From: Phenylobacterium sp.
GTDB lineage: Bacteria; Pseudomonadota; Alphaproteobacteria; Caulobacterales; Caulobacteraceae
Direction of reading: 5' to 3'
NCBI RefSeq assembly: GCF_013911965.1
Contig: NZ_JACESE010000009.1
Location: 69,085 to 133,084 of the forward strand
DNA length: 64,000 nucleotides
Shown: positions 41,652-61,693 of the stretch, piece after piece
Position numbering within the stretch: position 1 is the first letter of the stretch
How the letters are laid out: every line of letters begins with the position of its first letter
Notes under the pieces: generated by a model
Databases searched by the model: none
What the model was told of the DNA's origin: nothing
Seen by the model: only the letters and a program-made list of their open reading frames with translations
Translations under genes and position numbers: made by a program

Positions 41652-41665
41652 GCGGCGGCGAGACC

Positions 41666-46002: not shown

Positions 46003-46410
46003 TCAGCGCTCGCCGGCCGGCTCCACCAGCCATTCCCTGACCTCGGGCGGGGCGGCTTCGGCCCAGACGAGCAGGGCGTCCAGGGCGGGGCAGAGGGTCT
46101 GGCCCCAGTCGGTGAGGTGGTATTCCACGCGGGGCGGGACCTCGTGGTGGACGATGCGGGCGACGACGCCGTCGGCCTCCAGCTGGCGCAGCTGCTGGAT
46201 CAACATCTTCTGCGAGACGCCCGGGATCGCCTTCTCCAGCTCGGAGAAGCGCCGCCGCTGTCCGCCGAACAGCTGGAACAGGATGACCAGCTTCCAGCGG
46301 CCCTCAAGGATGCGCAGGGCGTTCTGCACGCTCCGCGCCCCGCCCGCGGGCGTGTAGTCCGGGCGCTTACTTTTTTGTGGGTTCCCCACTTTTTCGTCGG
46401 TTCTTGTCAT
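46003..46410 (-). CDS. HxlR family winged-helix regulator
   Basis: LEGRWKLVIL, RFSELEKAIPGVSQKMLIQQLR and PPRVEYHLT motifs. Confidence 0.92.
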   Translation of the reverse strand: MTRTDEKVGNPQKSKRPDYTPAGGARSVQNALRILEGRWKLVILFQLFGGQRRRFSELEKAIPGVSQKMLIQQLRQLEADGVVARIVHHEVPPRVEYHLTDWGQTLCPALDALLVWAEAAPPEVREWLVEPAGER

Positions 46411-46481
46411 GCGGAAAGCCTGAACGCACCTCTGCCGGAGAACAAGGCCGCACGGCGGCCCGACCGGATGGAGATTGAACC

Positions 46482-46808
46482 ATGAATGCGCTTCCCGAAC
46501 CCGTCGCCCGCTATCCGAAGGCCAGCGCCGAACTGGACGCGCAGGGCGCGCTTTCGCCCTTCGCCCCCGATGCGGTGGTGGTCGACGAAGGCCGCACGCA
46601 CAAGGGGACGGCCGAGATCGCCGACTGGATCGCCCAGGCGGCCGTTGCGGTGAAGGCCCGTCCGGCCGTTCTCTCCGCCGACTTGGAGGACGGGGCGCAC
46701 CTCGTCCGCGCCTCGGTGTCGGGCGACTTTCCCGGCAGTCCGGTCGAGCTGACCTTCCGCTTCCACCTCTCGCCGGACGGCATCTCGCGCCTGGAGATCC
46801 GGCCGTGA
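46482..46808 (+). CDS. SnoaL/NTF2-like protein
   Basis: FAPDAVVVDEG, GDFPGSPV and ISRLEI motifs; GGAGA RBS. Confidence 0.85.
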   Translation: MNALPEPVARYPKASAELDAQGALSPFAPDAVVVDEGRTHKGTAEIADWIAQAAVAVKARPAVLSADLEDGAHLVRASVSGDFPGSPVELTFRFHLSPDGISRLEIRP

Positions 46809-47593
46809 GCGGCGCGCCGGGTCTGGAGTTCGAGGGGCGGCGGGTCGTGCTGACGGGCGGCGGCGCCGGCGCCGGTCACGCCGTCTTCCGCAGGCTTTCG
46901 GCCGCCGGCGCCCGCGTGGTGACAGCCGGGCGGTCGGATGCCGTGGAGGGGCTCCCGCCTGAGGCCTACGTGCAGGCGGACCTCACCACCGCGCCGGGTG
47001 TCGCAGCGTTTGTGGACGCCGCGCTCGACCGCCTCGGCGGCGTCGACGCCGTGATCCACGTGGTCGGCGGCTCCAAGGCCCCGGCCGGCGGTTTCGCCGC
47101 TCTGGACGACGCCGAGTGGGCGAGCGAGATCGACCTGAATCTGATGACGGCGGTGCGGCTCGACCGCGCCCTGGTTCCGCACCTGATCGCCCAGGGCCAT
47201 GGCGTCGTGGTTCATACCGGCTCGATTCAGAGCCGCATGCCGCTCTACGACGCCACGATCGCCTATGCCGCGGCCAAGGCGGCGCTGACCACCTACAGCA
47301 AGGCGCTCGCCAACGAGGTCGGGCCCAAGGGCGTGCGGGTCAATCTCGTCTCGCCCGGCGGCATCAACACCGACGGGACGAAGCGGCTGGTGCGGCGGCT
47401 GGCGGAGCAGTCAGGCCGCGGCGAGGCCGAGGCGATGAAGGACCTGCTGGCGGCGCTCGGCGGCGTCCCGCTCGGCCGCTTCGCCGAGCCGGGGGAGGTG
47501 GCCGAGCTGATCGCCTTCCTCGCTTCCGACCGGGCCGCCGCCATCCACGGGGCCGAGTTCGTCATCGACGGCGGGACCCTGCCGACGGTTTAG
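46805..47593 (+). CDS. SDR family oxidoreductase
   Basis: LTGGGAGAG, HVVGG, YAAAK, VSPG and VIDGG motifs; GTGA overlap with the SnoaL gene. Confidence 0.9.
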   Translation: MSGAPGLEFEGRRVVLTGGGAGAGHAVFRRLSAAGARVVTAGRSDAVEGLPPEAYVQADLTTAPGVAAFVDAALDRLGGVDAVIHVVGGSKAPAGGFAALDDAEWASEIDLNLMTAVRLDRALVPHLIAQGHGVVVHTGSIQSRMPLYDATIAYAAAKAALTTYSKALANEVGPKGVRVNLVSPGGINTDGTKRLVRRLAEQSGRGEAEAMKDLLAALGGVPLGRFAEPGEVAELIAFLASDRAAAIHGAEFVIDGGTLPTV

Positions 47594-47602
47594 GAGCTTC
47601 AG

Positions 47603-47647
47603 GACGCGCGTTCCGACAACCGATTCCCGCTTTTCGGAACGCGCGTC
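47603..47647. repeat. RIME/BRU-RS-like palindromic element between convergent genes
   Basis: Perfect 14-bp stem GACGCGCGTTCCGA/TCGGAACGCGCGTC; the minus strand TTCCGAAAAGCGGGAATCGGTTGTCGGAA resembles the rhizobial TTCCGAAAAGTGG-ACCGGTTTTCGG repeat core. Confidence 0.55.
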
Positions 47648-49022
47648 AGTGCGGCACGTACTGGCGCAGGACGTCTTCGATGATGCGTTCGAGCTGGTCG
47701 AGCGTGTTGCAGGTCTTGGCCAGGTGGCAGAAGGGCAGGTAGCGGGTCATGACGCTGTCGCCCTGGCTCCAGTAGCTCTCCGGCTCTGGATTGAGCCAGA
47801 TGACCGAGCGGGACCGCTCGTGAATGGTGCGCATGATGTCCAGGCGCGGGTCGGCGTAGTTGGAGCGCGCGTCGCCCAGGAAGATCACCGTGGTGTGGCG
47901 GTCCAGGCTGTCGAGATGGTTCGCGGCGAAGTCCTCCAGCGCCTTGCCGTAGTCGGTCTGCTGGAAGCCGATGCGCTTGAGCACCTCCAGGATCGCCTTG
48001 TCGACGCCGTGCTCGTCCAGGATCTGGTTGACCGGAATCATCCGTCCCGAGAAGGCGAAGGCGTCCAGGCGGTCGACCACCTCGTTCAGGCTGTAGAGGA
48101 AGGTCAGCAGGAACTGGGCCGCGGCGGCCACCGACTTGGAGACGTCGCAGATGGCGACGATCTTGGGCTTGTCGACGCGCTCGGTCTTCCAGACGACGTT
48201 GAACGGCACGCCGCCATAGGCCATCGACTGGCGCAGGGTGCGGCGGACGTCCAGGTGGCCCTTCCTGGCCCGGTTGCGGCGGCGGGAATAGCGGTCGGCC
48301 AGACGCTTGGCCATCTTGCGGACCACCGCCTGCATCATCTGCAGGTCGACCGGATCGATGCCGCCCTCGGCGTTCAGCGCCTTGCGGGCCAGGAGCTCTT
48401 CGCGCAGCTGGCGGCCGCTCTCGGCGGCGTAGAGATCGTGCTGGCGCTGGACATAGCGCTGGGCCTCGGCCGTCAGCGCCCGCTTGCCGGCCTCCAGCCG
48501 TTTGGCCAGGCCTTCGCCGCCGGGGTCTTCCAGCTTGCGCGCCTGGGCGATGATCTTCTCGATCTCGGTGATTCCCAGCTCGTCCAGCAGGCGCCGCGTC
48601 AGGCGGCTCTTCTGTGTGGACAGGCGGATTTCGGAGACCTGCGCCTCCTGGCCCGCCTTCTCGATGGCCTGGGCGAGGCCGTTGGCGTCGCCCTGCAGGA
48701 TCATCTGGGCGATCTGCGAGCCGGCGGCCTCCTCGGAGACGTCCTCCAGCTTGGCCTCAGGCTCGGAGTCCTGGCCCTGCTGCGGCGGCGGCTCGCCCAT
48801 GTCGAAGGCCGAGCGAGCGAAGAAGTTGTCGAAGGCGCGGTCGAACCGCGCCACCTCCTCTTCGCTCTTGGCGAGCGTCGCGCACAGCGCGTCCTTCAGC
48901 AGCTCGCGGTCGGCGTAGCCCACGCGCGCCACGGCTTCGTGGGCGTCGATGGCCTCGGCCGGGGAGACGCCGACATCCGCGGCCCGGAGCGCGCGGATGA
49001 AGTCTTCCATCTGATGTTGCAT
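47646..49022 (-). CDS. VWA domain protein (CoxE-like)
   Basis: GHLDVRRTLR, MIDAS motif DVSKS, TDYG and GDARSN. Confidence 0.9.
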   Translation of the reverse strand: MQHQMEDFIRALRAADVGVSPAEAIDAHEAVARVGYADRELLKDALCATLAKSEEEVARFDRAFDNFFARSAFDMGEPPPQQGQDSEPEAKLEDVSEEAAGSQIAQMILQGDANGLAQAIEKAGQEAQVSEIRLSTQKSRLTRRLLDELGITEIEKIIAQARKLEDPGGEGLAKRLEAGKRALTAEAQRYVQRQHDLYAAESGRQLREELLARKALNAEGGIDPVDLQMMQAVVRKMAKRLADRYSRRRNRARKGHLDVRRTLRQSMAYGGVPFNVVWKTERVDKPKIVAICDVSKSVAAAAQFLLTFLYSLNEVVDRLDAFAFSGRMIPVNQILDEHGVDKAILEVLKRIGFQQTDYGKALEDFAANHLDSLDRHTTVIFLGDARSNYADPRLDIMRTIHERSRSVIWLNPEPESYWSQGDSVMTRYLPFCHLAKTCNTLDQLERIIEDVLRQYVPH

Positions 49023-49040
49023 GGGCGTCGGCCCCTTACG

Positions 49041-50009
49041 TCAGGCGCTGGCCTCGGCGGTGCGCAGAAGCTCGCTCACCTGCGGCTCGACGGCCTGGAT
49101 GTCCTGCTCGAACTTCAGGATCACGTTCAGCGTGTCGCGCACCAGGGCCGGCTCCAGGCTGTCGGCGTGCATCAGGATCAGCGCCCGGGCCCAGTCCACC
49201 GTCTCGGAGATGGAGGGCGACTTGCGCAAATCCAGTTCGCGCAGGGCGTGGACGAAGCCGACCAGCTGGTGGTTCAGGCGCGCTTCGATGTCGGGCACAC
49301 GGCTGGCCACGATCTGGCGCTCCAGGCTCGCCTCCGGCAGCGGTATGTGCAGGTGCAGGCAGCGGCGTTTCAGGGCGTCGCCCAGGTCGCGGACATTGTT
49401 CGACGTCAGGAAGACGATGGGCGGCGTCTTGGCCTTGATCACGCCCAGCTCCGGCACCGAGGCCTGGTAGGCCGACAGCACTTCGAGCAGGAAGGCTTCG
49501 AAGGCCTCGTCCGACTTGTCGATCTCGTCGATCAGCAGGACGCAGCCGTCGTCCTCGCGCAGGGCCTTCATCAGCGGCCGGGGCTCGAGGAAGGGCTCGG
49601 AGAAGAACATGTCGCCCATGCCGTGCAGGCGCTCCATGGCCTCGTCCATGCCCTGGGCGTCGGCCAGTTCGGCGCCCATGCGGTCCTTGAGGATCTGGGT
49701 GTAGAGGAGCTGCTTGCCGTATTTCCACTCGTACAGCGCCTTGGACTCGTCGAGGCCCTCGTAGCACTGCATGCGGATCAGCGGCAGGTCGAGCAGCTTG
49801 GCGGTGGACAGCGCCAGCTCCGTCTTGCCGACGCCGGCGACGCCCTCGACCAGGATGGGCTTCTGCAGGTTCACGGCCATGTAGAGGGCCGTGGCGATGC
49901 GCCGGGAGGCGATATAGCCGACGCCGGCGAGGCCCTCGATCAGGGTCTGTACGGAGGCGAAGGCGTTCGCCGACGGCTCGCTGTTCGCCGCCTGAGCCAA
50001 AATCGTCAA
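49041..50009 (-). CDS. MoxR family AAA+ ATPase (CoxD-like)
   Basis: GVAGVGKT, CYEGLD, LIDEIDK, TSNN and ALKRRC motifs; TTG start uncertain. Confidence 0.92.
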   Translation of the reverse strand: MTILAQAANSEPSANAFASVQTLIEGLAGVGYIASRRIATALYMAVNLQKPILVEGVAGVGKTELALSTAKLLDLPLIRMQCYEGLDESKALYEWKYGKQLLYTQILKDRMGAELADAQGMDEAMERLHGMGDMFFSEPFLEPRPLMKALREDDGCVLLIDEIDKSDEAFEAFLLEVLSAYQASVPELGVIKAKTPPIVFLTSNNVRDLGDALKRRCLHLHIPLPEASLERQIVASRVPDIEARLNHQLVGFVHALRELDLRKSPSISETVDWARALILMHADSLEPALVRDTLNVILKFEQDIQAVEPQVSELLRTAEASA

Positions 50010-50122: not shown

Positions 50123-51067
50123 TCAGGGCGCGTCGGTCAGGAAGTCGAGAATCGCCTTGCGGGATTCCGGCTCGTCCAGGGTTGGCGCATGGCCGGTCTC
50201 GGCCACCTCCAGCCGACGCATCTGCGGGGCGGCGGCCTGCATCCGGTCGGCCGTGGCGGATTTGAGCAGGTCCGAGGTCGCGCCGCGGATGAGCAGCAGC
50301 GGACGAGCCACCGAGAGCGCGGTGAAGAGCGGCCACAGATCGGCCGAGGGCTGCGACTGGCCGGGGGGCAGGGGGCTGAAGGCCTCGGCGATGGCCGGGT
50401 CGTAGTCGGGCATCAGCCGGCCGGGCGCCTCCTCCCGCCAGGTCCGGCGGGCGAAGGTGATCCATTCGGCGTCGCTCAGGCGGGGCAGGGCCTCGCCGTT
50501 GACGGCCCGGGCGCGCATGGCGGCCTCGGTCCAGGTCGCCGCCGGTTCCACCTTGCCCACATAGCCGGCGATCCGCGTCAGGCCTTCGGCGGCGATCTCG
50601 GCCCCGATGTCGTTCAGCACGGCGCCGGCGATCAGGTCCGGCCGCAGGGTCGACAGCGTCATGGTGATGATGCCGCCCATGGAGGTGCCGACGAAGATGG
50701 CGCGGGAGATGCCCGCCGCGCCCAGCAGGGCGGCCACGTCGCCGGCATAGACGGCCGGATTGTAGTTGCTGACGTTCGGGTCGCGCGCCGACTGGCCCCG
50801 GCCGCGCATGTCCAGCGCCAGGACCCGGCGGCCGGCGGCGGCGATCGCCGGCGCCAGACCCTCGAAATCCTTCGAATTGCGCGTCAGACCGTGCAGGCAG
50901 ACGACCGGCAGGCGGGCTTCCCCCTCGGCGCCGGCATAGTCGCGGGAAAACAGCGACAGCCCGTCGGGCGAGGTCCAGCGGCGTGCGACGCCCGCCGGCG
51001 CCGCCGGCGCCGCCGGCTGCGGCGCGGCCGCCGCGCCCCCGAACATGCGCTGGAAGATGTTCGCCAT
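50123..51067 (-). CDS. Alpha/beta hydrolase
   Basis: CLHGLTRN, DMRGRG, GTSMGG, NDIG and GHAP motifs; GGGGAG RBS before the ATG at 51067. Confidence 0.9.
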   Translation of the reverse strand: MANIFQRMFGGAAAAPQPAAPAAPAGVARRWTSPDGLSLFSRDYAGAEGEARLPVVCLHGLTRNSKDFEGLAPAIAAAGRRVLALDMRGRGQSARDPNVSNYNPAVYAGDVAALLGAAGISRAIFVGTSMGGIITMTLSTLRPDLIAGAVLNDIGAEIAAEGLTRIAGYVGKVEPAATWTEAAMRARAVNGEALPRLSDAEWITFARRTWREEAPGRLMPDYDPAIAEAFSPLPPGQSQPSADLWPLFTALSVARPLLLIRGATSDLLKSATADRMQAAAPQMRRLEVAETGHAPTLDEPESRKAILDFLTDAP

Positions 51068-51135: not shown

Positions 51136-52221
51136 TCAGCCCAGGCCGTAAGGCTTGTAGGGGCCGGCGATGAGCTGCTCGAAGATCCCCGTCCCCGTCT
51201 GCTCGGCGCCGTCCGGACGGGCCATGGTCACCTTCGACAGGGCCTGGATGTGGACGTTCTCGGGCGCGGCCATGTCGGCGGCGGCGAGATCGATGGCCTC
51301 GCGCTCGACGACCAACTCGCCCTTGTAGGCCCCGTGCCGCCAGGCCCCGGAATAGCCGATGCCGCGCATCAGGAAGGTGAGGATCGGCTCGAAGCGGATC
51401 CTCGCGACACCCTCGGGCAGGGGCAGTTCGAGCACGCCGCCCTTGGCGTGGCGGGTTCCGGGCGCAAGCTCGACCGCCGTCATTCGGGCGGCCTCGGTCA
51501 CATGGCCCTCGCCCTGGGCCGCGCCGTCGGGCAGCACGACGGCGCGCGTGTTCCAGGGCGTCCCCTGCGGGTCGGCGTTGACGTGGAAGAAGACGCTCTC
51601 GCGCTCGAAGTTCAGCGGCGTCCACTGCCAGAAGAAGCCCATGAGCGCGGGGTCGAGCGGGACTGGCGGCTGCGGGTCGGGCGCGCCGACGGGCCGCACG
51701 CCCCAGGAGCGGTCCCGCGTGCCGACGCTGCCGGCCGGCAGGTCGCGCCGGTCGCCGTCGACGGCGATCCAGCCTTCGCAGCGGACGTTCTGGGTCAGGC
51801 GCGTATAGTCCATGAAGGCCCGCGGCCCCATGCGCCGGATGAAGCGCGGCTCCTCGATGGGGAAGGCGCGACCGGTGAAGGTGATCTCGGCTTCGAGCCC
51901 CTCGCCGTTCACCTTCACCTTCAGCACCTGGAGCGGCTCGACCACCTCGATGGTGATGGGACCGACGGTCAGGTCCAGGCGCTCCGAATACAGGATCTTC
52001 GAGGCGTGCAGGCAGTGTTCGATCCCGTCGCGGATCACGGCGAAATGGGCGTCGGCCACGTTCAGGTGCGGATAGACGCCGAACGCCACGGCGAAATAGG
52101 TCGCGCCGTCGGGGCTGTAGCCGTTGAAGAAGTAGCGGTCGTAGAAGTTCCGGTCCGTCCCCGCATAGGCCACCGGCTCCGGCGTCTGATGGATGGGAAA
52201 GTCGTCGGCCTTGGTCAGCAT
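51136..52221 (-). CDS. Conserved hypothetical protein, probable AttH/CrtC/tocopherol-cyclase-like beta fold
   Basis: DDFPIHQ, NFYDRYFF and GTRDRSWGVRP motifs; GGAGG RBS; fold assignment is inference. Confidence 0.7.
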   Translation of the reverse strand: MLTKADDFPIHQTPEPVAYAGTDRNFYDRYFFNGYSPDGATYFAVAFGVYPHLNVADAHFAVIRDGIEHCLHASKILYSERLDLTVGPITIEVVEPLQVLKVKVNGEGLEAEITFTGRAFPIEEPRFIRRMGPRAFMDYTRLTQNVRCEGWIAVDGDRRDLPAGSVGTRDRSWGVRPVGAPDPQPPVPLDPALMGFFWQWTPLNFERESVFFHVNADPQGTPWNTRAVVLPDGAAQGEGHVTEAARMTAVELAPGTRHAKGGVLELPLPEGVARIRFEPILTFLMRGIGYSGAWRHGAYKGELVVEREAIDLAAADMAAPENVHIQALSKVTMARPDGAEQTGTGIFEQLIAGPYKPYGLG

Positions 52222-52410
52222 GGGCGTCCTCCGGATGGCTCATTAGTTCTAGGGCGCTCGATTGTCGGTATTGCGACGCCGCGCTCGGCCGCAGTATCAA
52301 GTGAACCAAGATAACAAGACAAGGGAGGCGGCGTCCGCTGCCGTCGCGTAAGGAAATGGCTGCCGCAGGGTCAGCATTCCGTCGCGTCAAGCGGGCCCGG
52401 GAAGAGGACC

Positions 52411-53685
52411 ATGACTGAGGACGCTGCGCGCATCCCAGATGAGCATGCGCAAACTCTGGTCGATCCCAAGGCGTATGCCGACGGACGCATCCATGAAACC
52501 TATGCCTGGTTGAGGGCGAACAACCCGTTCGGCCGCGCCTATCCGGAGGGGTTCGAGCCCTTCTGGGTGGCCACCAAGCATGCCGACATCCTGGAGATCA
52601 GCCGGCAGAACGCCCTCTTCCTGAACGGCGACAAGTCGCCGACCATCGTCAATGCGGAGACCGACAAGCGCATCCGCGAAATGACCGGCGGAAGCCCGCA
52701 CCTGCTGCGGACCCTCATCCACATGGATGAGCCCGACCACATGAAGTACCGCACCCTGACCCAGGCCTGGTTCATGCCCCAGAACCTGCGGAAGATGGAG
52801 GAGCGCATCCGCGGCGTGGCCAGGGCGTCGGTCGAGCAGATGGCTGCGACCGGCGGCAAGTGCGACTTCGTCCGCGAGGTGGCGCTGCACTACCCCCTGC
52901 GGGTGATCATGGAGATCATGGGCGTGCCGCCGGAAGACGAGCCGCGCATGCTGATGCTGACCCAGGAGCTGTTCGGCGCCGCCGACCCCGAACTGGCGCG
53001 CAAGGAAGAGCCCGATCCCGCCGGCAAGCTGACGCCCGGCGTCATCACCGACTTCTTCGAGTACTTCCGCAAGCTGTCGGCCGACCGCCGCGCCCATCCG
53101 GGCGACGATCTGGCCAGCGTCATCGCCAACAGCCAGATCGACGGCCAGCCGATCTCGGAGTTCGAGGCGATGAGCTACTACATCATCGTCGCCACGGCGG
53201 GGCACGACACCACCTCCTCCTCGACGGGCGGCGCCATCTGGGGGCTGGCGGAGAACCCCGGCGAACTGGCCAAGCTGAAGGCCGATCCCTCGCTCATCCC
53301 CGGCCTGGTGGACGAGTCCATCCGCTGGACGACGCCGGTGAAGACCTTCATGCGCACGGCCGCCGAGGCCACCGAGATGGGCGGGCGCCGGCTCGATAAG
53401 GGCGACTGGCTGATGCTCTGCTACGCCTCGGGCAACCGCGACGAGGAGGTCTTCGACGACCCGCAGGCCTTCCGCGTCGACCGCAAGCCGAACAGGCACC
53501 TGGCCTTCGGCTACGGCGCCCACCTGTGCCTGGGCCAGCACCTGGCCAAGATGGAGATGCGGATCCTCTGGGAGGAGCTGATCCCGCGCCTTCAGTCCCT
53601 GGAGCTGGCCGGCGAGCCGGCCATGTCCCAGGCGGTGTTCGTCAACGGGCCCAAGACCCTGCCCATCCGGTTCTCGATGGCCTGA
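52411..53685 (+). CDS. Cytochrome P450 (CYP108-like)
   Basis: I-helix TAGHDTT, ExxR motif ESIRW and heme motif FGYGAHLCLG. Confidence 0.95.
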   Translation: MTEDAARIPDEHAQTLVDPKAYADGRIHETYAWLRANNPFGRAYPEGFEPFWVATKHADILEISRQNALFLNGDKSPTIVNAETDKRIREMTGGSPHLLRTLIHMDEPDHMKYRTLTQAWFMPQNLRKMEERIRGVARASVEQMAATGGKCDFVREVALHYPLRVIMEIMGVPPEDEPRMLMLTQELFGAADPELARKEEPDPAGKLTPGVITDFFEYFRKLSADRRAHPGDDLASVIANSQIDGQPISEFEAMSYYIIVATAGHDTTSSSTGGAIWGLAENPGELAKLKADPSLIPGLVDESIRWTTPVKTFMRTAAEATEMGGRRLDKGDWLMLCYASGNRDEEVFDDPQAFRVDRKPNRHLAFGYGAHLCLGQHLAKMEMRILWEELIPRLQSLELAGEPAMSQAVFVNGPKTLPIRFSMA

Positions 53686-54716
53686 TGGACGAGGCCGAGC
53701 TCACCCCGCGGCTGGCGGCCTATATCGCCGGCCGCATGCCGGAGGCGCGCGACGTCGCCGTCTCCGACATGAACCGCATCACCGGCGGCGCCTCGCGCCA
53801 GACCTGGCGCTTCACCTGCGCCTGGACCGACGGCGAGGGCCGGCGGCGTTCCCGCGGCTTCATCCTGCGGCGAGATCCGGCCGACAGCCTGATCGACACC
53901 GAACGCCGCGTGGAGTTCGAAGCCTATCGCGCCTTTCGCGGTTCGGCCGTGCCGGTGCCCGAGATGCTGTGGCTGGAAGAGGGCGACGAGGCCCTCGGGA
54001 GCCCCTTCTTCGTGGCCGAGGAGATCGCCGGCTTCCAGGCGGGTACGGGCGCCCTGTTCGCCCCGCCCTATCTCGACACCCTGCCAGAGCTGGGCCGGCG
54101 GAAGTGGACCATCCTGGGGGAGATCGCCAAGGCCGACCCGGCCAGGATCGGCCTGGCCGACGTCCTGCCGGCGGTGGCGCCGGACGCCTGCTGGTCGCGC
54201 GAACTCGACCACTGGGAGGGCGTGCTCGATTCCGACGAGACCGAGCCCCTGCCCATCATCCGCGCCGCCATCCGGTGGTTGCGCGCCAACCCGCCGCCGC
54301 CGGCCCAGAAGGTCGGCGTGGTGCATGGCGACTACCGCACCGGGAACTTCCTGTACGACGCGGCCGGCGGCATCCACGGCATCCTCGACTGGGAAATGTG
54401 CCACCTCGGCGATCCGCTGGAGGATCTGGGCTGGAGCTTCAATCCCGTCTGGTCCTTCGGCCAGGGCAAGCCGGGCGGCCTCCTGCCGCGCGAGGCGGCG
54501 ATCGCCGCCTGGGAAGCCGCGTCCGGCCTGCGGGCCGAGCCCCAGGCGCTGAAGTGGTGGGAGCTGTTCGCCTGCGTGAAGGGCCAGGCCATCTGGGTCT
54601 CCAGCGCCAGGGCGTGGATGGACGGCGCCAACCGCGATCCGATCCTGGTCTATCCCGCCTGGGCCCTGATCAACGCCCAGGACCGGGCGGCGCTGAAAGT
54701 GATGGGACGTCTATGA
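53685..54716 (+). CDS. APH-like phosphotransferase (LvaA/ACAD10-11 kinase-like)
   Basis: GGASRQTW, ILRRDP, VVHGDYRTGN and ILDWE...GDPLEDL motifs; TGATG overlap with the P450 stop. Confidence 0.9.
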   Translation: MDEAELTPRLAAYIAGRMPEARDVAVSDMNRITGGASRQTWRFTCAWTDGEGRRRSRGFILRRDPADSLIDTERRVEFEAYRAFRGSAVPVPEMLWLEEGDEALGSPFFVAEEIAGFQAGTGALFAPPYLDTLPELGRRKWTILGEIAKADPARIGLADVLPAVAPDACWSRELDHWEGVLDSDETEPLPIIRAAIRWLRANPPPPAQKVGVVHGDYRTGNFLYDAAGGIHGILDWEMCHLGDPLEDLGWSFNPVWSFGQGKPGGLLPREAAIAAWEAASGLRAEPQALKWWELFACVKGQAIWVSSARAWMDGANRDPILVYPAWALINAQDRAALKVMGRL

Positions 54717-55159
54717 AACCCTCTGCTCCCCAGGTGCTGGCCGACCTGGCCGGCCTCTCTATGCGCAACGCCGCGCCCGATGTGGCGCCGGCCGCGCGCG
54801 CGGGCCAGCTGGGCCTGGCGGCCCTGCTGCTCGGGCTCGCCGCCGAGATGTGGGACGGCGCGGCGGACATTCTCGTGCGCGAGAACGCCGCCCTGCGCGC
54901 CCTGCTGGCCGACGGGGCGGCCCTGTCGGAGGACGGCGCCCGCCGCCGCTGGCTTTCGGAACTCTCCGCAGGCGGCGACGGCGGCCTGCGGATCTCCGAC
55001 CTGGAGGCCGCCAACGCCGAGCTGAAGGTGGCGCTCATCGCGCTCCACGCCGAAGTGGAGCGGCGGAGCGACGAGGCTGCTCGCGACCTGGAGGCGCGGG
55101 TCTGGGATGAGCTCGCAAGGTCGACGGAACGCCGGAAGCTCTCGGGCTCGCCCTGCTAA
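54713..55159 (+). CDS. Small helical protein coupled to the phosphotransferase (LvaB/DUF6285-like position)
   Basis: ATGA overlap with the kinase stop; Ala/Leu/Arg/Glu-rich helical sequence. Confidence 0.75.
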   Translation: MKPSAPQVLADLAGLSMRNAAPDVAPAARAGQLGLAALLLGLAAEMWDGAADILVRENAALRALLADGAALSEDGARRRWLSELSAGGDGGLRISDLEAANAELKVALIALHAEVERRSDEAARDLEARVWDELARSTERRKLSGSPC

Positions 55160-55256
55160 GCCGGTCGACAAGCGGCCCGCTCTCGTCTTTTCTGGCGCCC
55201 GCCCGGCCGTCAGCGCCGGGATTTATCAGATTCATTCATTGAGGGATGGAGACGTA

Positions 55257-55664
55257 ATGCCGCCTCGCATGTTGCCGGAGCCGACTCCGGAGACCCAGCA
55301 TTTCTGGGACGGGACCCGCAACGGGGAGCTGCTGCTCCAGCGTTGCAAGGAGACCGGTGAAGCCTATTTCCCCCCGCGCCCCTTCTGCCCCAAGACGGGC
55401 TCGCGCAATGTCGAGGTGTTCAAGGCCAGCGGCCGCGGCACGCTCCACTCCTACGTCATTAACCACCGCCCGCGCCCCGACATGGGGACCGAGCCCTACG
55501 CCATCGCCGTGGTGAAGCTCGAGGAAGGGCCGAAGATGATGACCAATATCGTCAACTGCCCCCAGACGCCCGAGGCGCTCGTCCTCGACATGCCGGTGGA
55601 GGTCGTCTTCGAGAAGATGAGCGACACCATCACGCTGCCGTTCTTCCAACCGGCGAAGGCCTAA
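55257..55664 (+). CDS. DUF35 (Zn-ribbon/OB-fold) acyl-CoA-binding protein
   Basis: FWDG, YFPPRPFCP, GTLHSY, KLEEGPKMMTNIV and LPFFQP motifs. Confidence 0.9.
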   Translation: MPPRMLPEPTPETQHFWDGTRNGELLLQRCKETGEAYFPPRPFCPKTGSRNVEVFKASGRGTLHSYVINHRPRPDMGTEPYAIAVVKLEEGPKMMTNIVNCPQTPEALVLDMPVEVVFEKMSDTITLPFFQPAKA

Positions 55665-55675
55665 GGGGCGACACC

Positions 55676-56818
55676 ATGAAGCAGAAGACTGTCGCGGTCG
55701 TCGGGGCCGCTGAAACCACCAAGATGGGCAAGATCCCGGACGTGTCCGTGATCGGCCTGCACGCCGACGCGGCGCTGAACGCCATGGCCGACGCCGGGCT
55801 GAAGCCCACGGACATCGACGGCGTGGCCTGCGCCGGCATCTCGCCGGTGGAGCTCGCCCAGTATCTGGGGATCACGCCGACCTATGCCGACGGCACCAGC
55901 GTCGGCGGCTGCTCCTTTATGCTGCACGTCCGCCATGCCGCGGCCGCCATCAACGAGGGCCTGTGCACCACGGTGCTGATCACCCACGGCGAATCCGGCC
56001 GGTCGCGGGTCGGCGTCGGCGGCTTCGGCCGCGCGGCCTCCAGCCTGATGGGCCAGTTCGAGATGCCCTACGGCGTCACCTCGCCGCCGACCATGTTCAC
56101 CATTCCCGTGCTTCGCTACATGAAGACCTACGGCGTGACCGAGCAGGACCTGGCCAATGTGGCGGTGATCCAGCGGGAGTGGGCGGCGAAGAACCCGCGC
56201 GCCTCCTATCGCGACCCGATCACGGTCGACGACGTGCTGAACTCGGACATGATCGCCTGGCCGTTCCGCAAGCTGATGTGCTGCCTGGTCACCGACGGCG
56301 GCGGCGCGCTGATCCTGACCAGCGCCGAGCGGGCCAAGGACTTCCCGCAGAAGCCTGTCTATGTGCTCGGCACGGGCGAGAGCGTCGAGACGCCGATGGT
56401 CAGCCAGATGGAGGACTTCACCACCTCCAAGGCCTTCCGCGTCTCGGGGAAGAAGGCCTTCGACGAGGCGGGCGTCAAGCACGCCGACGTGGACCACCTG
56501 ATGATCTACGACGCCTTCGCCCACCTGCCGCTCTATGGCCTCGAGGACCTGGGCTTCTGCAAGCCGGGCGAGGCCAAGGACTTCATCAACGAGCGCAACA
56601 CCGCCATCGGCGGCAAGCTGCCGCTGAACACGAATGGCGGGGGCCTGTCCTACATGCACTCGGGCATGTACGGCATGTACGCCCTGCAGGAGAGCGTGCG
56701 TCAGATGCGCGGCATAGCGCCGGCCCAGGTGGACGGCGCCAGGATCAGCGTCTGCCATGGGGTCGGCGGCATGTTCGCCGCCTCCGGCACCATCATCTTC
56801 TCGAACGAAGCGCCTTAG
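55676..56818 (+). CDS. SCP2/Ltp2-type thiolase-superfamily protein
   Basis: GGCSF, VTDGGGA, IYDAF, NTNGGGLSYMH and CHGVGG motifs. Confidence 0.9.
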   Translation: MKQKTVAVVGAAETTKMGKIPDVSVIGLHADAALNAMADAGLKPTDIDGVACAGISPVELAQYLGITPTYADGTSVGGCSFMLHVRHAAAAINEGLCTTVLITHGESGRSRVGVGGFGRAASSLMGQFEMPYGVTSPPTMFTIPVLRYMKTYGVTEQDLANVAVIQREWAAKNPRASYRDPITVDDVLNSDMIAWPFRKLMCCLVTDGGGALILTSAERAKDFPQKPVYVLGTGESVETPMVSQMEDFTTSKAFRVSGKKAFDEAGVKHADVDHLMIYDAFAHLPLYGLEDLGFCKPGEAKDFINERNTAIGGKLPLNTNGGGLSYMHSGMYGMYALQESVRQMRGIAPAQVDGARISVCHGVGGMFAASGTIIFSNEAP

Positions 56819-56837
56819 ACTTCAAAGTCTTACCGCA

Positions 56838-56870
56838 CTCCATGCTGCGCCTTTGCTGCGCAGCATGGAG
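56838..56870. terminator. Hairpin between the convergent thiolase and chemotaxis operons
   Basis: Perfect 13-bp stem CTCCATGCTGCGC/GCGCAGCATGGAG. Confidence 0.6.
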
Positions 56871-56888
56871 CCTGCGGCGGCCCGCGGC

Positions 56889-57377
56889 TCAGGCGGCGGG
56901 CTGTTCGCCTTCGGGCGCGTCGGGCTCGACGATCTGCAGCCGCTCGGTGAGCGCCCAGAGGCCGTCGACCATGGCGCTCAGCGCCTCGCGTCCGGATTCC
57001 TCAGTGTTCCAGATCAGCCGCATGCCGTCCACGTGGACCTTGATCGAGGCCCAGTCCTCGCGGTCCTGGGTCCGCAGCTTGTCGGCCAGCTCGCACAGGC
57101 TGTAGGCCGCACGGCACAGCAGCTTGTCGTCGAACAGGCCGGCGATATCGAGGACGCTGGTGGAAAGGTCGTAGACGGAGTCCATCGGCGCGGACTTGTC
57201 CTGGCACAGCCACTCCAGGGTCTCCAGCGTCTCGCCGATCGCCTCGTAGGACTTGCCCTGTTGCGCCGCGAGTTCGCGGGCGGCGCGCGTGTTGGCCATG
57301 CCGGCGGTCATGCCGCCCGGCTCGACCACGTGCTGGGCCAGGCGGTTCTTCACCTTGAAGACTTCGGCGTCGCTCAT
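56889..57377 (-). CDS. cheE: CheE-like protein (last gene of the Caulobacter-type che operon), helical bundle
   Basis: Position after the Cle-type receiver matches the C. crescentus order cheD-cheU-cheYIII-cheE; the symbol is from synteny. Confidence 0.6.
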   Translation of the reverse strand: MSDAEVFKVKNRLAQHVVEPGGMTAGMANTRAARELAAQQGKSYEAIGETLETLEWLCQDKSAPMDSVYDLSTSVLDIAGLFDDKLLCRAAYSLCELADKLRTQDREDWASIKVHVDGMRLIWNTEESGREALSAMVDGLWALTERLQIVEPDAPEGEQPAA

Positions 57378-57970
57378 AGGGCGGCCCTTTGCGGCTTAAG
57401 CAGCATATCGATCTCGTCCTGATCCATGTTGGGATCCTTGGCCGCGCCGATGTGGGCGGAGAGATCGTCCTTGCGTCGGCCCTTCACCCCGAGAGGAGGG
57501 CCCATGTTGCGGAAACGCCGGTCGGGTCCGACGTAGGAATCGCTGCGGACCATGGCCCGCTCGTCCTTCGCCACCCAGTAGATCCGCTGCAGCAGGACCT
57601 CCGGCGTGAAGGGCTTGGAAACGATGAAGTTGGCGCCGCAGTCGCGGCTGCTCTCGACGGTCGAACGCGCGGCGTGGCCGGTCAGCATGATGATCGGCAG
57701 GAAGTTGGCCTCGGCCGGCGCGTCGCGGCGGAGCCAGCGCACGAAGTCGTAGCCGTCCATGTCGGGCATGGCCGTGTCGCAGATGATCAGGTCGATCTCG
57801 CGGTGCGACAGGATCGACTGCGCCTCGGCGGCCGATCGGCACTTCACCTGCCTGTGCACGCCGAAGCCGCGGAAGATGGAGCTCAGAACCTCCAGCGCCT
57901 GCTCGTTGTCGTCGATGAGCAGGACCGTGGACCTTGCCAGGTTCATCCGGACGTCTGGGTGCAGGCTCAT
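57374..57970 (-). CDS. cleA: CheY-like c-di-GMP effector (Cle family; CheYIII/CleA orthologue)
   Basis: Receiver domain (LLIDDN, IICDTAMP, SKPF) plus C-terminal YVGPDRR...GRRKDD arginine-rich motif. Confidence 0.8.
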   Translation of the reverse strand: MSLHPDVRMNLARSTVLLIDDNEQALEVLSSIFRGFGVHRQVKCRSAAEAQSILSHREIDLIICDTAMPDMDGYDFVRWLRRDAPAEANFLPIIMLTGHAARSTVESSRDCGANFIVSKPFTPEVLLQRIYWVAKDERAMVRSDSYVGPDRRFRNMGPPLGVKGRRKDDLSAHIGAAKDPNMDQDEIDMLLKPQRAAL

Positions 57971-57979
57971 GGCGGCGCC

Positions 57980-58360
57980 CTAGAAGAGGTCGAGGTCGCC
58001 CGATTCCGCGTCCGGAGGAGGCGGGATCAGGGTGGCGTCGTGCAAGACCGCGCGGAGACGGGAGGCCAGGTCTCCCAGCGGCACCTGGGCCAGAAGGGCG
58101 TCGGTGTCCACGTTGCGCGCATGCGTCAGCTGGTCCGACAGGCCGCGCATGAAGCTGGTCAGGCTGTCGAGATGCTGGGTGAGGACATCCAGCGTCTGGG
58201 CTTCGCTGAGCGCCAGTTCGCGCACCTCGCCCTGGGCGTTGGTGGTCAGTCGGCTGACAAGTTCCTCCAGGCGCGCGCACAGGCCGCCGGCGTGCTCGGT
58301 CTCCGCGGCGAGGGCGGCGAGCACCGGGGGGGCGAGGGCGGCGACCTGGGCCATGCGCAT
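57980..58360 (-). CDS. cheU: CheU-like chemotaxis protein
   Basis: Position after cheD; contains QTLDVLTQ and a C-terminal GDLDLF; the symbol is from synteny. Confidence 0.65.
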   Translation of the reverse strand: MRMAQVAALAPPVLAALAAETEHAGGLCARLEELVSRLTTNAQGEVRELALSEAQTLDVLTQHLDSLTSFMRGLSDQLTHARNVDTDALLAQVPLGDLASRLRAVLHDATLIPPPPDAESGDLDLF

Positions 58361-58917
58361 CAGAAGAGCTCCACGGCGCCGTCGTCGACCGGGGCCGGAA
58401 CGGGCTTGGGGACTTCCTTCAGGCGGGTCAGTTCGCTGTTGTCGGTGACGGTCTTCTGCTGGGCCCGGCCGGTGGTGGGCCAGAACTGGATGCGCCGGGC
58501 GCCGACCCCGCCGAGGCTGGTGCCCACCACGGGGATGCCTTCGTCGCGCATGAAGCGCTCGGCGAAGGCGGCGTTGGCCGCGCCGACGTCGGACAGGCCG
58601 TTGAACATGCGCGCGCCGCCGAACAGCTTGCCCTGCAGCCGCTCGCGCCGCGCCCCCAGGCGCAGCAGGTCGTTGATCAGCAGTTCCATGGCGAAGGCGC
58701 CGTAGCGGCGGCCCTCATTGGCCCCCTCGGCCTTGCCCTCGGGCAGCAGGAAGTGGTTCATCCCGCCCGCGCCGCGGACCGGGTCCCAGAGGCACAGCGC
58801 CACGCAGCTGCCCAGGATGGTGGTCAGCACCACGTCCGGATCGTCCGTGACGTAGTGCTCACCCTGGACCACATGCACGCGGCGGCCCGGCCGCTGGGAG
58901 ATGTTCTCGACGATCAT
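58360..58917 (-). CDS. cheD: Chemoreceptor glutamine deamidase CheD
   Basis: VVQGE, TILGSCVA, GMNHFLLP and KLFGGA motifs. Confidence 0.94.
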   Translation of the reverse strand: MIVENISQRPGRRVHVVQGEHYVTDDPDVVLTTILGSCVALCLWDPVRGAGGMNHFLLPEGKAEGANEGRRYGAFAMELLINDLLRLGARRERLQGKLFGGARMFNGLSDVGAANAAFAERFMRDEGIPVVGTSLGGVGARRIQFWPTTGRAQQKTVTDNSELTRLKEVPKPVPAPVDDGAVELF

Positions 58918-59303
58918 CCGAGAGGTCCGAACACCGCTTCGATCTTCTCCTTCAGAGTCTGGGTCGTGAAGGGCTTGACCAGGTAGTTGTTGACGCCGAA
59001 CTGCACGGCCCGCTGCACCAGCTCGCGGTCGGCGCGGCCGGTCAGCATGATGACCGCCGTCTTGGAGATGGGGCCGTGGGCGCGGATCGCCCGCAGCAGG
59101 CCCAGGCCGTCCAGCTTGGGCATGTTGAAGTCGGTGATCACCAGATTGGCCGGCTGGGCGAGCAGGGCGCGCAGGGCGTCCTCGCCGTCGGCCACTTCGC
59201 GGGTCTGGGTGATGCCGAGCGTGTGCAGGCTGGTGCGGATCAGCGAGCGCATCGACTGCTGATCGTCCGCAATCAAGGTCTTGATGGATCCCGGGGCGGG
59301 CAT
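58914..59303 (-). CDS. cheY: Chemotaxis response regulator CheY (CheYII-type)
   Basis: IADDQ, ITDFNMPKLDG, MLTG and VKPF motifs. Confidence 0.93.
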   Translation of the reverse strand: MPAPGSIKTLIADDQQSMRSLIRTSLHTLGITQTREVADGEDALRALLAQPANLVITDFNMPKLDGLGLLRAIRAHGPISKTAVIMLTGRADRELVQRAVQFGVNNYLVKPFTTQTLKEKIEAVFGPLG

Positions 59304-60340
59304 CAGGCGCTCCTTTGCGGCTCGGCGGCCGCACAGACAGACAGGATCGCCGCGCTCATGCGAGCCAGCGGCGCTTGTTTTTCCACCGCGCCGATTTCGA
59401 AGGCGGCGCGGGGCATTCCGTAGACGACGCAACTGGCCTCGTCCTGGCCGAGCGTCCGGGCGCCGGCCTGGCGCATGGTCAGCAGGCCCTGGGCGCCGTC
59501 GCGGCCCATGCCGGTGAGGATGACCCCCACCGACGGGCGGTTGAGGCGGGCGACGGACTCGAAGAGCACGTCGACCGATGGGCGATGGCCATTGACCGGG
59601 CCGTCCTGGCGAAGGCGGCAGACCGGCGTCGTGCTGCCGGTCACCTCCAGGTGGGCCTCGCCGCCGGGCGCCAGATAGACGTGGCCGGGCGCCAGCCGCG
59701 CGCCGTCCCAGGCCTCGGCGACCTTGGCGCCGGAGACGCGATCGAGCCGCTCGGCGAAGCTCTTGGTGAAGGTCGCCGGCATGTGCTGGGTGATCACCGT
59801 CGGCGGGCAGGTGGAGGGGAAGGCCGACAGGATGGTCATCAGGGCCTCGACCCCGCCGGTGGACGAGCCGATCGCCAGGATGACGTCGTCGGCCTTGTAG
59901 GCGCGGGTTTCCTCCACCCGGGTCACGTGCCCGCTGAACGGCCGCACGCGCGCCCGGGCGGCGGCCTTCACCTTGTCGGCCAGGTCGGAGAAGGCCTCCG
60001 CGGCGGTGTGGCCGGCCGACGGCTTGCCGACGCAGTCGACGGCGCCGAGCTCCATGGCCGCCAGGGTCACCTCGGCGCCCTGCTGGGTCAGGGTCGAGAC
60101 CATGACCACCGGCATCGGCCGCAGCCGCATGATCTTCTCAAGGAAGTCGAGGCCGTTCATGTGCGGCATCTCGACGTCAAGGGTGATGACGTCGGGGTTG
60201 AGGCGCTTGATCGCGTCTCGCGCCTCGATGGGGTCATTGGCGAAGCCCAGGACCTCGATCTCGGGATCCTGGCGCAGGGTCGCGGCGATCAGGCTCCGCA
60301 TGGTCGCGGAGTCGTCGACGATGAGGACGCGAACGGTCAT
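59303..60340 (-). CDS. cheB: Chemotaxis methylesterase CheB
   Basis: Receiver domain plus [19 protein letters not shown] and LTGMGRDG motifs. Confidence 0.97.
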
Positions 60341-61227
60341 CGGACGGCCTTCAGGCGGTAGGTGGTGAGGCCAGCGGTCTCCAGGGTCGCGACGGCCGGA
60401 CCGGTCACCCGTTCGGAGTGGCCGATGTAGAGGGTCGCGCCCGGATTCATGGCCGGGACGAAGCGGCTCCAGATGCGCTCCTGCGTCGGCTCGTCGAAAT
60501 AGATGACGACGTTCCGGCAGAAGATGGCGTCGAAACGCCCGCGCATCGGCCAGTCGCCGATCAGGTTCAGCTCACGGAAGGAGACAAGTTCGCGCAGCTC
60601 CGGCGCGACCGACCAGACGCGGCCGTCGTGGGCCGCCGTCTTCTGGAACCAGCGGCGGCGCAGCTCCAGCGGGATCGGCGACACCGCGTCCTCGCGATAG
60701 GCGCCGGCGCGGCCTTCGGCGATCATGTTGGGGTCGATGTCGGTGGCCAGGATCTTCACGTCCAGGCTCGCCGCCTCGGGCAGCACCGACAGGACCGTGA
60801 TGGCCATGGAATAGGGCTCCTGGCCGTTGGAGCAGGCGGCCGACCAGAGGCGCACGCGTCCCCCGGCGCGCGCCCGCGCGGCCAGTTCGGGCATGACCTG
60901 GTCGCGCAGGTGGTCGAAGTGATGCGGCTCACGGAAGAAGCGCGTCACATTGGTGGTCAGCGCGGCCATCATGGCCTGCCGCTCGTCGAGGCTCCCGGCG
61001 TCCTCGACCAGGGCGCAGTACTCTCGGAAGCTCCGCAGCCCCAGGGTCCGCAGCCGCTTGGCCAGGCGCGAGTAGACGAGCGCCGCCTTGCCCTCGTGCA
61101 GAGCGATCCCCGCATGCGAATGCAGGATCTGGGCGATCTTGCGGAAGTCCTCGGCGGTCAGCAGGAATTCGCCGTCGACGAGGCCCTCGTCCTTCGCGCT
61201 GCGCCGGGGATCGGGGGACTGCGTCAT
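60337..61227 (-). CDS. cheR: Chemotaxis methyltransferase CheR
   Basis: [34 protein letters not shown] and IGHSE motifs. Confidence 0.97.
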
Positions 61228-61691
61228 GCGGCCTCGGCCTCGGTTTCCGGCAGGACGCGGTCGAGCGCGATCAGGCTGACCATCCGGCCGTCCAGGGCGA
61301 ACAGACCCTTCACGAAGGTCTTCACCTGGTCGCTGGCCACGTCCGGAGTCGGCTGAACGAGGTCGTCGCTCATGTTGATGATGTCGGACACCGCATCGAC
61401 CAGCAGGCCGATGGTGCGGTCGCCGATGTGGACCACCATGATGACGTGGCGGGCGGTCGGCTCGGACGTCTTCAGGCCCAGGCGCGCGCCCAGGTCGATG
61501 ATCGGCAGGACGGCGCCGCGCAGGTTGATCACGCCCTTCACGAAGGACGGGGTGCGGGGCAGGGGCGTGGCCGGGGCCCAGCCGCGGATTTCCCGCACCG
61601 ACATGATGTCGACGCAGAACTCCTGGTCCCCGATACGGAAGGCGATCAGTTCACGGCGCTGCGCGGCGCCTTGGGTCACGGTGTCATTCAT
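61224..61691 (-). CDS. cheW: Chemotaxis coupling protein CheW
   Basis: [22 protein letters not shown] and GLLVDAVSD motifs. Confidence 0.96.
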
Positions 61692-61693
61692 GC

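Follow-up and report, generated by a model that had tools for sequence, protein, structure and literature searches.

A P450-coupled kinase and phospho-lyase gene module in Phenylobacterium: a candidate ATP-dependent dehydratase with a small helical partner protein

Gene organization of the locus

We describe four neighbouring genes in a 64 000-nucleotide stretch of genomic DNA from Phenylobacterium sp. (contig NZ_JACESE010000009.1; the whole stretch, with a G+C content of 70%, is referred to here as the window). The close protein matches of the window all bear the genus name Phenylobacterium. Three of the genes are arranged head to tail on the forward strand and encode a cytochrome P450, a small-molecule kinase and a small helical protein; the fourth is transcribed divergently and encodes a homologue of a phosphate-eliminating lyase. 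Together, their products are candidates for an ATP-dependent dehydratase. The features of the locus are as follows.

51136-52221, minus strand: phospho-lyase homologue, 361 amino acids, AttH/CrtC-like all-β fold, NCBIfam NF053593 ('Rv3169 family')
52222-52410: divergent intergenic region, 189 nt between the lyase and P450 genes
52411-53685, plus strand: CYP108-family cytochrome P450, 424 amino acids (PF00067, E = 7e-23)
53685-54716, plus strand: APH-fold small-molecule kinase, 343 amino acids (PF01636, E = 8e-33)
54713-55159, plus strand: all-helical protein, 148 amino acids, 16 kDa, unannotated family, directly after the kinase

A sequence-only reading of the window had described the P450, APH-like kinase and small helical protein genes as chained by TGATG and ATGA overlaps, in a unit devoid of genes for ferredoxin, reductase or acyl-CoA dehydrogenase (ACAD), and both observations hold. 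The sequence and the list of open reading frames (ORFs) confirm the order P450, kinase, small helical protein, all on the plus strand. The P450 frame of 424 codons opens with the ATG at 52411 and closes with the TGA at 53683-53685, the final A of which is shared with the kinase start codon (ATG 53685-53687) to give the TGATG junction. The kinase frame of 343 codons ends with the TGA at 54714-54716 and is overlapped by 4 nt (ATGA) by the start codon of the small gene (ATG 54713-54715), which ends at 55159. No ferredoxin, FAD reductase or ACAD is found among the called genes within ±10 kb at L034, a locus that is 98% identical to this one, and when the window ORFs of at least 60 amino acids were searched with a crude regular expression, none showed the Cys motif of ferredoxins.

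The divergent phospho-lyase homologue

The product of the divergent gene matches NF053593 with an E value of 9e-114 (380 bits, compared with a cutoff of 150) and has no Pfam match. Residues 2-307 align with the 25-phosphosteroid lyase (25-PSL) of Sterolibacterium denitrificans (PDB entries 9fzn, 9g2i and 9g4c, released in January 2026) with ~35% identity (E = 1.8e-43). An AlphaFold2 (AF2) model of the protein, with a predicted local distance difference test (pLDDT) score of 77, resembles the same three structures with template-modelling (TM) scores of 0.81-0.83 (E = 1e-25), followed by a second structural tier (E ~1e-9) that comprises AttH (2ich), kievitone hydratase and the Diels-Alderases Fsa2, Phm7 and CghA. 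The motifs DDxPxHQ, DRNFYDRY, RDRSWGxRPxG and WxHG are invariant with 25-PSL, and the columns that are invariant in the window lyase, L003, P0306 (the homologue from P. zucineum HLK1) and 25-PSL include R24, R29, R169, R171, R176, H11 and H296, among others. The gene had been labelled AttH-like from the sequence alone; the fold was correctly recognized, but the specific relative is 25-PSL, a phosphate-eliminating lyase. This homologue at 51136-52221 lends strong support to the suggestion, made in the same reading, that phosphate serves as a leaving group. Relatives of the lyase fold, such as kievitone hydratase and those behind the CrtC-like label, act on prenyl-type termini via tertiary carbocations. 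At least 70 of the examined loci have a kinase gene beside the lyase-family gene; the gene arrangements are of three kinds, and the kinases belong to two subfamilies.

The kinase and its small helical partner

The kinase scores 114.6 bits against PF01636 (cutoff 23.2). Its catalytic motifs HGDYRTGN (catalytic loop HxDxxxxN) and LDWE (metal-binding Asp) are intact and align with those of 9o56, 3dxp, 9fsg and ACAD11. The best solved relatives are these four and Rv3168 (3ats), the last matched weakly and in two fragments (E = 3e-9). The kinase scores 55-77 bits against ACAD10/11-, 3dxp- and 25-HSK-like kinases (25-HSK being the 25-hydroxysteroid kinase of S. denitrificans) and ~20-24 bits against antibiotic kinases, so it groups with the former, in line with the earlier reading; NCBIfam returns weak matches to Mph, Vph, Cph and LxmK, with E values of 1e-4 to 1e-2 (8e-5 for LxmK). 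The identity to each of the solved relatives, ACAD11 and 3dxp included, is 23-27%, whereas ACAD11 and 3dxp are 49% identical to each other, which places the window kinase within the expected broad subgroup yet apart from the clade of 4-hydroxyacyl-CoA kinases. Its own clade, with identities of 44-58%, unites it with the kinases encoded in the Myxococcota pairs and in the lyase-kinase-small protein operons described below. Pairwise scores of this kind do not separate an acyl-CoA from a free-alcohol substrate, and in the alignment with 8v3v the region around the CoA-contacting residues Arg86 and Arg176 of ACAD11 is gapped, with uncertain chain numbering.

Neither Pfam nor NCBIfam has a match for the small protein, and a profile search against the PDB gave chance matches only (E > 0.3). 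Its AF2 model (pLDDT 88) consists of five helices, one of which spans 46 residues, and a Foldseek search of the PDB with this model found no structural analogue (best E = 2.3). The fold offers no functional lead. The small gene immediately follows the kinase gene in 61 of 61 loci; it starts within an ATGA or GTGA overlap in 57 of them and lies no more than 4 nt from the kinase stop codon in the other four. The family comprises 963 clusters at 50% identity, all of ~140-150 amino acids, with no fusions among the top 150. The small protein is thus predicted to be an obligate partner of the window kinase clade. The comparison with LvaA and LvaB made in the sequence-only reading is borne out in arrangement, that is, as an obligate, translationally coupled small partner.

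The cytochrome P450

The P450 is 48.8% identical to P450terp (CYP108A1) over 422 amino acids, in agreement with its original typing as CYP108. As CYP nomenclature sets the family limit at more than 40% identity and the subfamily limit at 55%, it belongs to the CYP108 family as a member of a separate subfamily. The best PDB matches are P450terp (1cpt, E = 2.6e-140), CYP108D1 (3tkt, E = 1.8e-123) and P450tol (7v40, E = 3e-121), followed by CYP125, CYP142, CYP124 and CYP153. The I-helix motif AGHDTT, with its acid-alcohol pair, and the heme-binding loop FGYGAHLCLG (FxxGxxxCxG) both align with 1cpt and are features that the window P450 shares with P450terp. Members of the CYP108/125/124/142/153 clan hydroxylate methyl groups in terminal, allylic or benzylic position; their substrates are terpenoids, alkanes, branched lipids and the side chains of sterols. 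Known CYP108 enzymes act on methyl groups of terpenoid or aromatic substrates, and α-terpineol, the substrate of P450terp, is itself a tertiary alcohol. The P450terp operon includes linked genes for terpredoxin, a reductase and dehydrogenases, whereas the window P450 gene lacks these and is coupled to a kinase gene instead.

Conservation of the module

Related loci were collected by a genome scan with a nine-sequence alignment of the small protein (one genome per species; 29 loci) and by a metagenome scan with an alignment of the lyase (80 loci), and were compared using tblastn, a hidden Markov model (HMM) of the small protein and neighbour clustering. The arrangement seen in the window, with the lyase gene on the minus strand and the P450, kinase and small genes on the plus strand, recurs in 20 of the 21 assessable Caulobacteraceae genomes, in six metagenome contigs and at L034. 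The P450-kinase junction measures between -3 and +8 nt in all 25 Caulobacteraceae-type loci, with kinase identities that fall to ~64-68%. Since both this junction (25/25) and the ATGA/GTGA overlap of the small gene (57/61) are kept across such divergence, the gene arrangement is more than chance. At the divergent loci L021-L026 the four genes are still together where the flanking synteny has been lost, and a TonB receptor gene and a TetR gene appear in the flanks of this set. The gene structure, the homologies, the conserved linkage and the translational coupling are direct observations.

Outside the Caulobacteraceae the composition differs. In 28 metagenome loci from other lineages the lyase, kinase and small protein are encoded in this order on one strand, and the small gene is present in all 23 co-directional lyase-kinase loci that are long enough to assess. 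A further 16 loci (L047:4898-7059, L051:6001-8164 and 14 others) carry a lyase homologue beside another type of kinase (Pfam EcKL, ecdysteroid-kinase-like, plus APH); these lyase homologues are 57-62% identical to the window lyase and no small protein is encoded there. The lyase family thus seems to pair with whichever small-molecule kinase fits. In the Myxococcota-type loci (L001:8216-10447 and L027-L033) the kinase and small genes show the same 4 nt overlap, with no P450 gene within up to 10 kb. At L001 and L002 a glutaredoxin/GST-like gene lies divergently upstream of the kinase pair.

In an unrelated metagenomic lineage (L095:3893-8711), a TetR gene on the minus strand is followed on the opposite strand by genes for a CYP125-like P450, the lyase, the kinase and the small protein. 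The best PDB match of this P450 is a reconstructed CYP125 ancestor (E = 7.5e-92). The P450 and lyase genes are separated by 1 nt and the lyase and kinase genes overlap by ATGA, and the small gene begins ~175 nt beyond the kinase ORF, unlike elsewhere. L095 represents an independent recruitment to the triad of a P450 from the same CYP108/125/124/142/153 clan. The conserved core consists of the lyase, the kinase and the small protein, to which the P450 is a lineage-specific addition in the Caulobacteraceae; the P450-kinase linkage put forward in the sequence-only reading is conserved in that family (20/21 genomes) but is not part of the core.

Genes for two kinds of MFS transporter (MFS_1 and MFS_1_like/LacY-type) and for a DUF423 membrane protein occur near lyase-kinase-small protein operons in 9-12 of 25 loci. 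One locus with such transporters is L081 (L081:4283-5898 and L081:9089-10357). TetR regulator genes adjoin the module in L021, L095 and Mycobacterium tuberculosis.

Comparison with known systems

In Sterolibacterium denitrificans, the APH-like kinase 25-HSK phosphorylates a tertiary alcohol at C25 in the side chain of cholesterol; 25-PSL then eliminates the phosphate to give a Δ24 alkene, the allylic C26 methyl group of which is hydroxylated next (PMC8449060, PMC11061730). This is the system closest to the window module, with the same lyase family, the same APH kinase fold and the same phosphorylate-then-eliminate logic. Both are also tied to hydroxylation of a neighbouring methyl group, by the molybdenum enzyme S26DH in Sterolibacterium and by a P450 here. 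The two also differ in several respects. 25-HSK, as represented by the probable entry 9fsg, belongs to another clade and is ~25% identical to the window kinase. The kinase and lyase genes are unlinked in Sterolibacterium but linked in Phenylobacterium. Sterolibacterium works anaerobically with a molybdenum hydroxylase, whereas Phenylobacterium is an aerobe with an O2-dependent P450 and no steroid-degradation context; no steroid catabolic genes occur in the window flanks.

In the LvaA/LvaB/LvaC system of Pseudomonas putida and in mammalian ACAD10/ACAD11, a 4-hydroxyacyl-CoA kinase is combined with phosphate elimination by an ACAD. The window module shares with these an APH-fold kinase of the same broad subgroup and the use of phosphate as a leaving group, but has no linked ACAD or CoA ligase, and its eliminating enzyme is an AttH-fold lyase. 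LvaB is a 12 kDa protein that binds LvaA and is encoded beside it; the window partner, with 148 amino acids, resembles it in arrangement.

The Rv3168-Rv3169 operon of M. tuberculosis, which is repressed by the TetR protein Rv3167c, encodes an APH-fold kinase and Rv3169, from which the lyase family takes its name. The order there is kinase followed by lyase, and neither a small partner nor a P450 is known there. The structure of Rv3168 (3ats) is annotated as a putative aminoglycoside kinase; by analogy with the present module, the pair may be a kinase-lyase dehydratase and not a resistance determinant. Class III-V lanthipeptide synthetases (e.g. LxmK) likewise use the phosphorylate-then-eliminate strategy with an APH-like kinase, but their substrates are peptide Ser/Thr residues and their lyases have an unrelated fold, and the window contains neither a precursor peptide nor a cyclase.

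Proposed function and alternative explanations

We consider it probable (at about 0.6) that the four genes specify an ATP-dependent dehydratase, acting on a hydrophobic alcohol, together with a methyl-hydroxylating P450 to which it is coupled. The enzymatic activities, the formation of a kinase-small protein complex, the substrate class and the order of the steps are inferred as follows. The kinase, in a stoichiometric complex with the 16 kDa helical protein, would transfer phosphate from ATP to the hydroxyl of a hydrophobic alcohol. The substrate would most likely be a tertiary alcohol at an isoprenoid-type terminus, because the relatives of the lyase fold use prenyl termini and tertiary carbocations and because 25-HSK and 25-PSL act on a tertiary alcohol. 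Expulsion of the phosphate by the lyase would then create a C=C double bond; overall, the alcohol would be dehydrated at the cost of ATP, as with 25-HSK and 25-PSL. The CYP108 P450 would hydroxylate a methyl group of the same molecule, with redox partners encoded elsewhere. It is quite possible, at somewhat under even odds, that the P450 acts after the dehydration and hydroxylates the allylic methyl group as an aerobic equivalent of S26DH, an order that fits because its relatives hydroxylate methyl groups. The reverse order, in which the P450 acts before the dehydration and creates the alcohol, as the sequence-only reading proposed, is somewhat less probable; by analogy, the methyl regiochemistry of the relatives would suit the former order at least as well. 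As MFS transporters, a TonB receptor and TetR regulators recur near the module, the substrate may be an external small molecule.

Several observations weigh against this interpretation. Two Caulobacteraceae loci (L022 and L037) have the module without the P450, which is hence dispensable for the core, and no class I redox partners (ferredoxin and ferredoxin reductase) are linked to the window P450. Nine Myxococcota-type loci contain the kinase and small genes with no lyase gene within up to 10 kb. On its own, as a monomer, 25-HSK is active, whereas the window kinase clade always comes with its 148-residue helical partner. Moreover, 9fsg is probably 25-HSK as judged only from its chain length and from neighbouring PDB codes, and at ~25% identity it is as distant from the window kinase as are the 4-hydroxyacyl-CoA kinases, so the kinase alone gives no clue to the substrate. 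Lastly, the recurrent MFS and TetR genes fit detoxification as well as catabolism.

The route originally proposed for the locus follows the LvaAB and ACAD10/11 model: the P450 would hydroxylate an acyl chain, a 4-hydroxyacyl-CoA would be phosphorylated and converted to an enoyl-CoA, and the DUF35 and thiolase genes downstream would complete the β-oxidation of a branched or cyclic lipid. The higher scores of the kinase against ACAD11/3dxp-type than against antibiotic kinases, the LvaB-like coupling of the small partner and the presence of a motif-intact SCP-x-type thiolase with DUF35, 97 nt downstream in 16 of 22 Caulobacteraceae loci, all speak for such a route. It would, however, call for an ACAD and a CoA ligase, and neither an ACAD nor an acyl-CoA ligase is encoded within ±10 kb or among the recurrent neighbours of ~50 related loci; a phospho-lyase of the 25-PSL family is linked instead, and the kinase, at 23-27% identity to ACAD11 and 3dxp compared with 49% between those two, stands in a clade of its own. 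DUF35 and thiolase genes are also lacking at the more divergent loci within the Caulobacteraceae and at every locus outside this family, and evolve much more slowly than the module. We therefore do not favour the 4-hydroxyacyl-CoA/ACAD model or the inclusion of DUF35/thiolase in the unit, and regard this route as improbable. A second explanation, little more probable, is the modification of a xenobiotic or antibiotic, in which the kinase and its partner would inactivate or tag a hydroxylated toxin that the P450 and lyase detoxify further and an MFS protein exports. The APH fold is common to resistance kinases, NCBIfam gives the weak matches to Mph, Vph, Cph and LxmK noted above, two kinds of MFS gene recur beside the triad and a TetR gene adjoins the module in L021, L095 and M. 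tuberculosis. The resistance-kinase scores are nonetheless ~20 bits, compared with curated cutoffs of 200-650, and the conserved phosphate-eliminating lyase implies that phosphorylation is an intermediate step and not an end point. The module is, in addition, kept across Phenylobacterium species and is not sporadic in the manner of resistance genes.

A biosynthetic role, with a double bond introduced into an endogenous terpenoid or lipid by hydroxylation, phosphorylation and elimination or by dehydration of a cyclase-derived tertiary alcohol, would accord with the genus-wide conservation, with the syntenic chromosomal site beside housekeeping-like genes and with the decalin-forming Diels-Alderases Fsa2, Phm7 and CghA among the lyase fold relatives. 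At none of the loci examined, however, is a terpene synthase, cyclase, prenyltransferase or other biosynthetic gene linked; the neighbouring TonB receptor, MFS and TetR genes suggest that an external compound is taken up, and the characterized CYP108 members, 25-HSK and 25-PSL are catabolic, so we consider this role improbable as well. It is very unlikely, finally, that the genes are neighbours without a common pathway, the P450 being merely co-transcribed with an unrelated kinase pair. The absence of the P450 from L022, L037 and all non-Caulobacteraceae lineages but one would be expected in such a case, as would the Myxococcota loci that carry the kinase pair alone. Against it stand the P450-kinase spacing, which stays between -3 and +8 nt at all 25 loci despite substantial divergence, the four genes remaining together where the flanks differ and the independent P450 recruitment at L095.

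Flanking genes and expression signals

The remaining features of the window are listed below.

40286-44992, plus strand: single-chain biotin carboxylase-BCCP-carboxyltransferase (long ORF, domains at residues 461-1548)
46003-47593, minus and plus strands: HxlR regulator (minus), SnoaL_2 (NTF2-like) gene and SDR gene (plus), an upstream block
47646-50009, minus strand: MoxR-type AAA ATPase and VWA (CoxE-like) pair, beside the hydrolase and lyase genes
50123-51058, minus strand: α/β-fold serine hydrolase (PF00561/PF12697), same strand as the lyase gene and downstream of it
55257-56818, plus strand: DUF35 (ChsH2-type zinc ribbon and OB) and SCP-x-type thiolase genes (PF12172/PF01796, PF22691)
57374-64000, minus strand: chemotaxis cluster (response regulators, CheD, CheB, CheR, CheW, CheA, STAS, MCP), from the L034 gene table

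The serine hydrolase has 3bwx, a structure of unassigned function, as its best PDB match (E = 1.5e-66). Its gene adjoins that of the lyase at L035 and at 16 of the 22 genome loci from Caulobacteraceae, the latter count including L021 and L023, in which a TetR gene intervenes. It is a possible accessory gene of the module, frequent but not universal.

The DUF35 gene starts at 55257, 97 nt past the small gene, and owing to this gap is not overlap-coupled. Of the 22 Caulobacteraceae loci, 16 carry the pair after the small gene; it is absent at L021, L022, L024 and L025, each with at least 3 kb of downstream sequence, and at all non-Caulobacteraceae loci. Where it is present in Caulobacteraceae loci the pair is 88-98% identical and the kinase 68-95%; the thiolase retains Cys79 and the C-terminal His/Cys motifs. 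The two genes were set aside as part of the pathway because of this inconsistent linkage and very different evolutionary rate, much slower than that of the module, and probably form a separate unit outside it. The HxlR-SnoaL-SDR block was rejected as part of the pathway; it is found only in this strain and L034, is absent from all other Phenylobacterium loci and has the appearance of a recent insertion, its neighbours being conserved. For the MoxR-AAA/VWA genes and the chemotaxis cluster, conservation amounts to general synteny within the closest Phenylobacterium clade; the chemotaxis cluster (57374-64000) is unrelated to the module. The product of 40286-44992, which in L034 is called as a protein of 1108 amino acids, is a fused acyl-CoA carboxylase with an architecture that is uncommon in bacteria.

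The 189-nt spacer (52222-52410) is presumed to be a shared regulatory region of the lyase and P450 genes, and contains an inverted repeat of 8 nt (GACGCCGC/GCGGCGTC, 52275-52335). A scan of 51900-57200 found no σ70 consensus promoters or terminators, and Rfam gave only a sub-threshold chance miRNA match. In two runs guessed to be RNA the depth is flat across genes and spacers, which is probably due to DNA carry-over. An oil-facility metatranscriptome (X21) contains short unitigs across 53632-53787 (the P450/kinase junction) and 55006-55375 (from the last part of the small gene through the spacer into DUF35), with depths of 149, 49 and 230. The depth step near ~55169 could reflect a separate start of the DUF35/thiolase transcript; the evidence from X21 is too thin for the operon limits to be defined. 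Between 71% and 99% of the 31-mers of 52411-55159 occur in assemblies labelled marine, rock, hot-spring, lagoon, macroalgae, oil-facility and single-organism, a spread that points either to a cosmopolitan organism or to a frequent laboratory or reagent contaminant.

Implications

The module is best described as a P450-coupled, three-component form of kinase/phospho-lyase dehydratase, and its small protein defines a family that lacks annotation in Pfam and NCBIfam. A wider interpretation, which we advance tentatively, is that the lyase, the kinase and the 16 kDa subunit could constitute a widespread, unrecognized three-component, ATP-dependent dehydratase for tertiary, isoprenoid-type alcohols in aerobes, to which P450s were recruited independently (CYP108 here and the CYP125-like enzyme at L095). 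It would form an oxygen-dependent counterpart of the Sterolibacterium C25/C26 cascade, in which the small protein would represent a novel type of kinase subunit and Rv3168-Rv3169 a related dehydratase.

To our knowledge, biochemical evidence for the dehydration of unreactive alcohols by phosphorylation and elimination is limited to a few settings, namely the breakdown of cholesterol side chains under anaerobic conditions, the pathways for levulinate and 4-hydroxy acids, and lanthipeptide synthesis. If the proposed function is correct, the kinase/lyase chemistry of Sterolibacterium would be widespread among aerobic bacteria of soil and water, would gain an additional, unannotated subunit and would be wired to P450s that oxidize terpenoid methyl groups. 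Hundreds of proteins currently annotated as 'hypothetical protein' or 'aminoglycoside phosphotransferase', including those of the TetR-controlled Rv3168-Rv3169 operon, would acquire a testable function. The module would also suggest a degradation route for tertiary terpene alcohols, which are not directly oxidizable, and could be a source of enzymes for ATP-driven regioselective dehydration.

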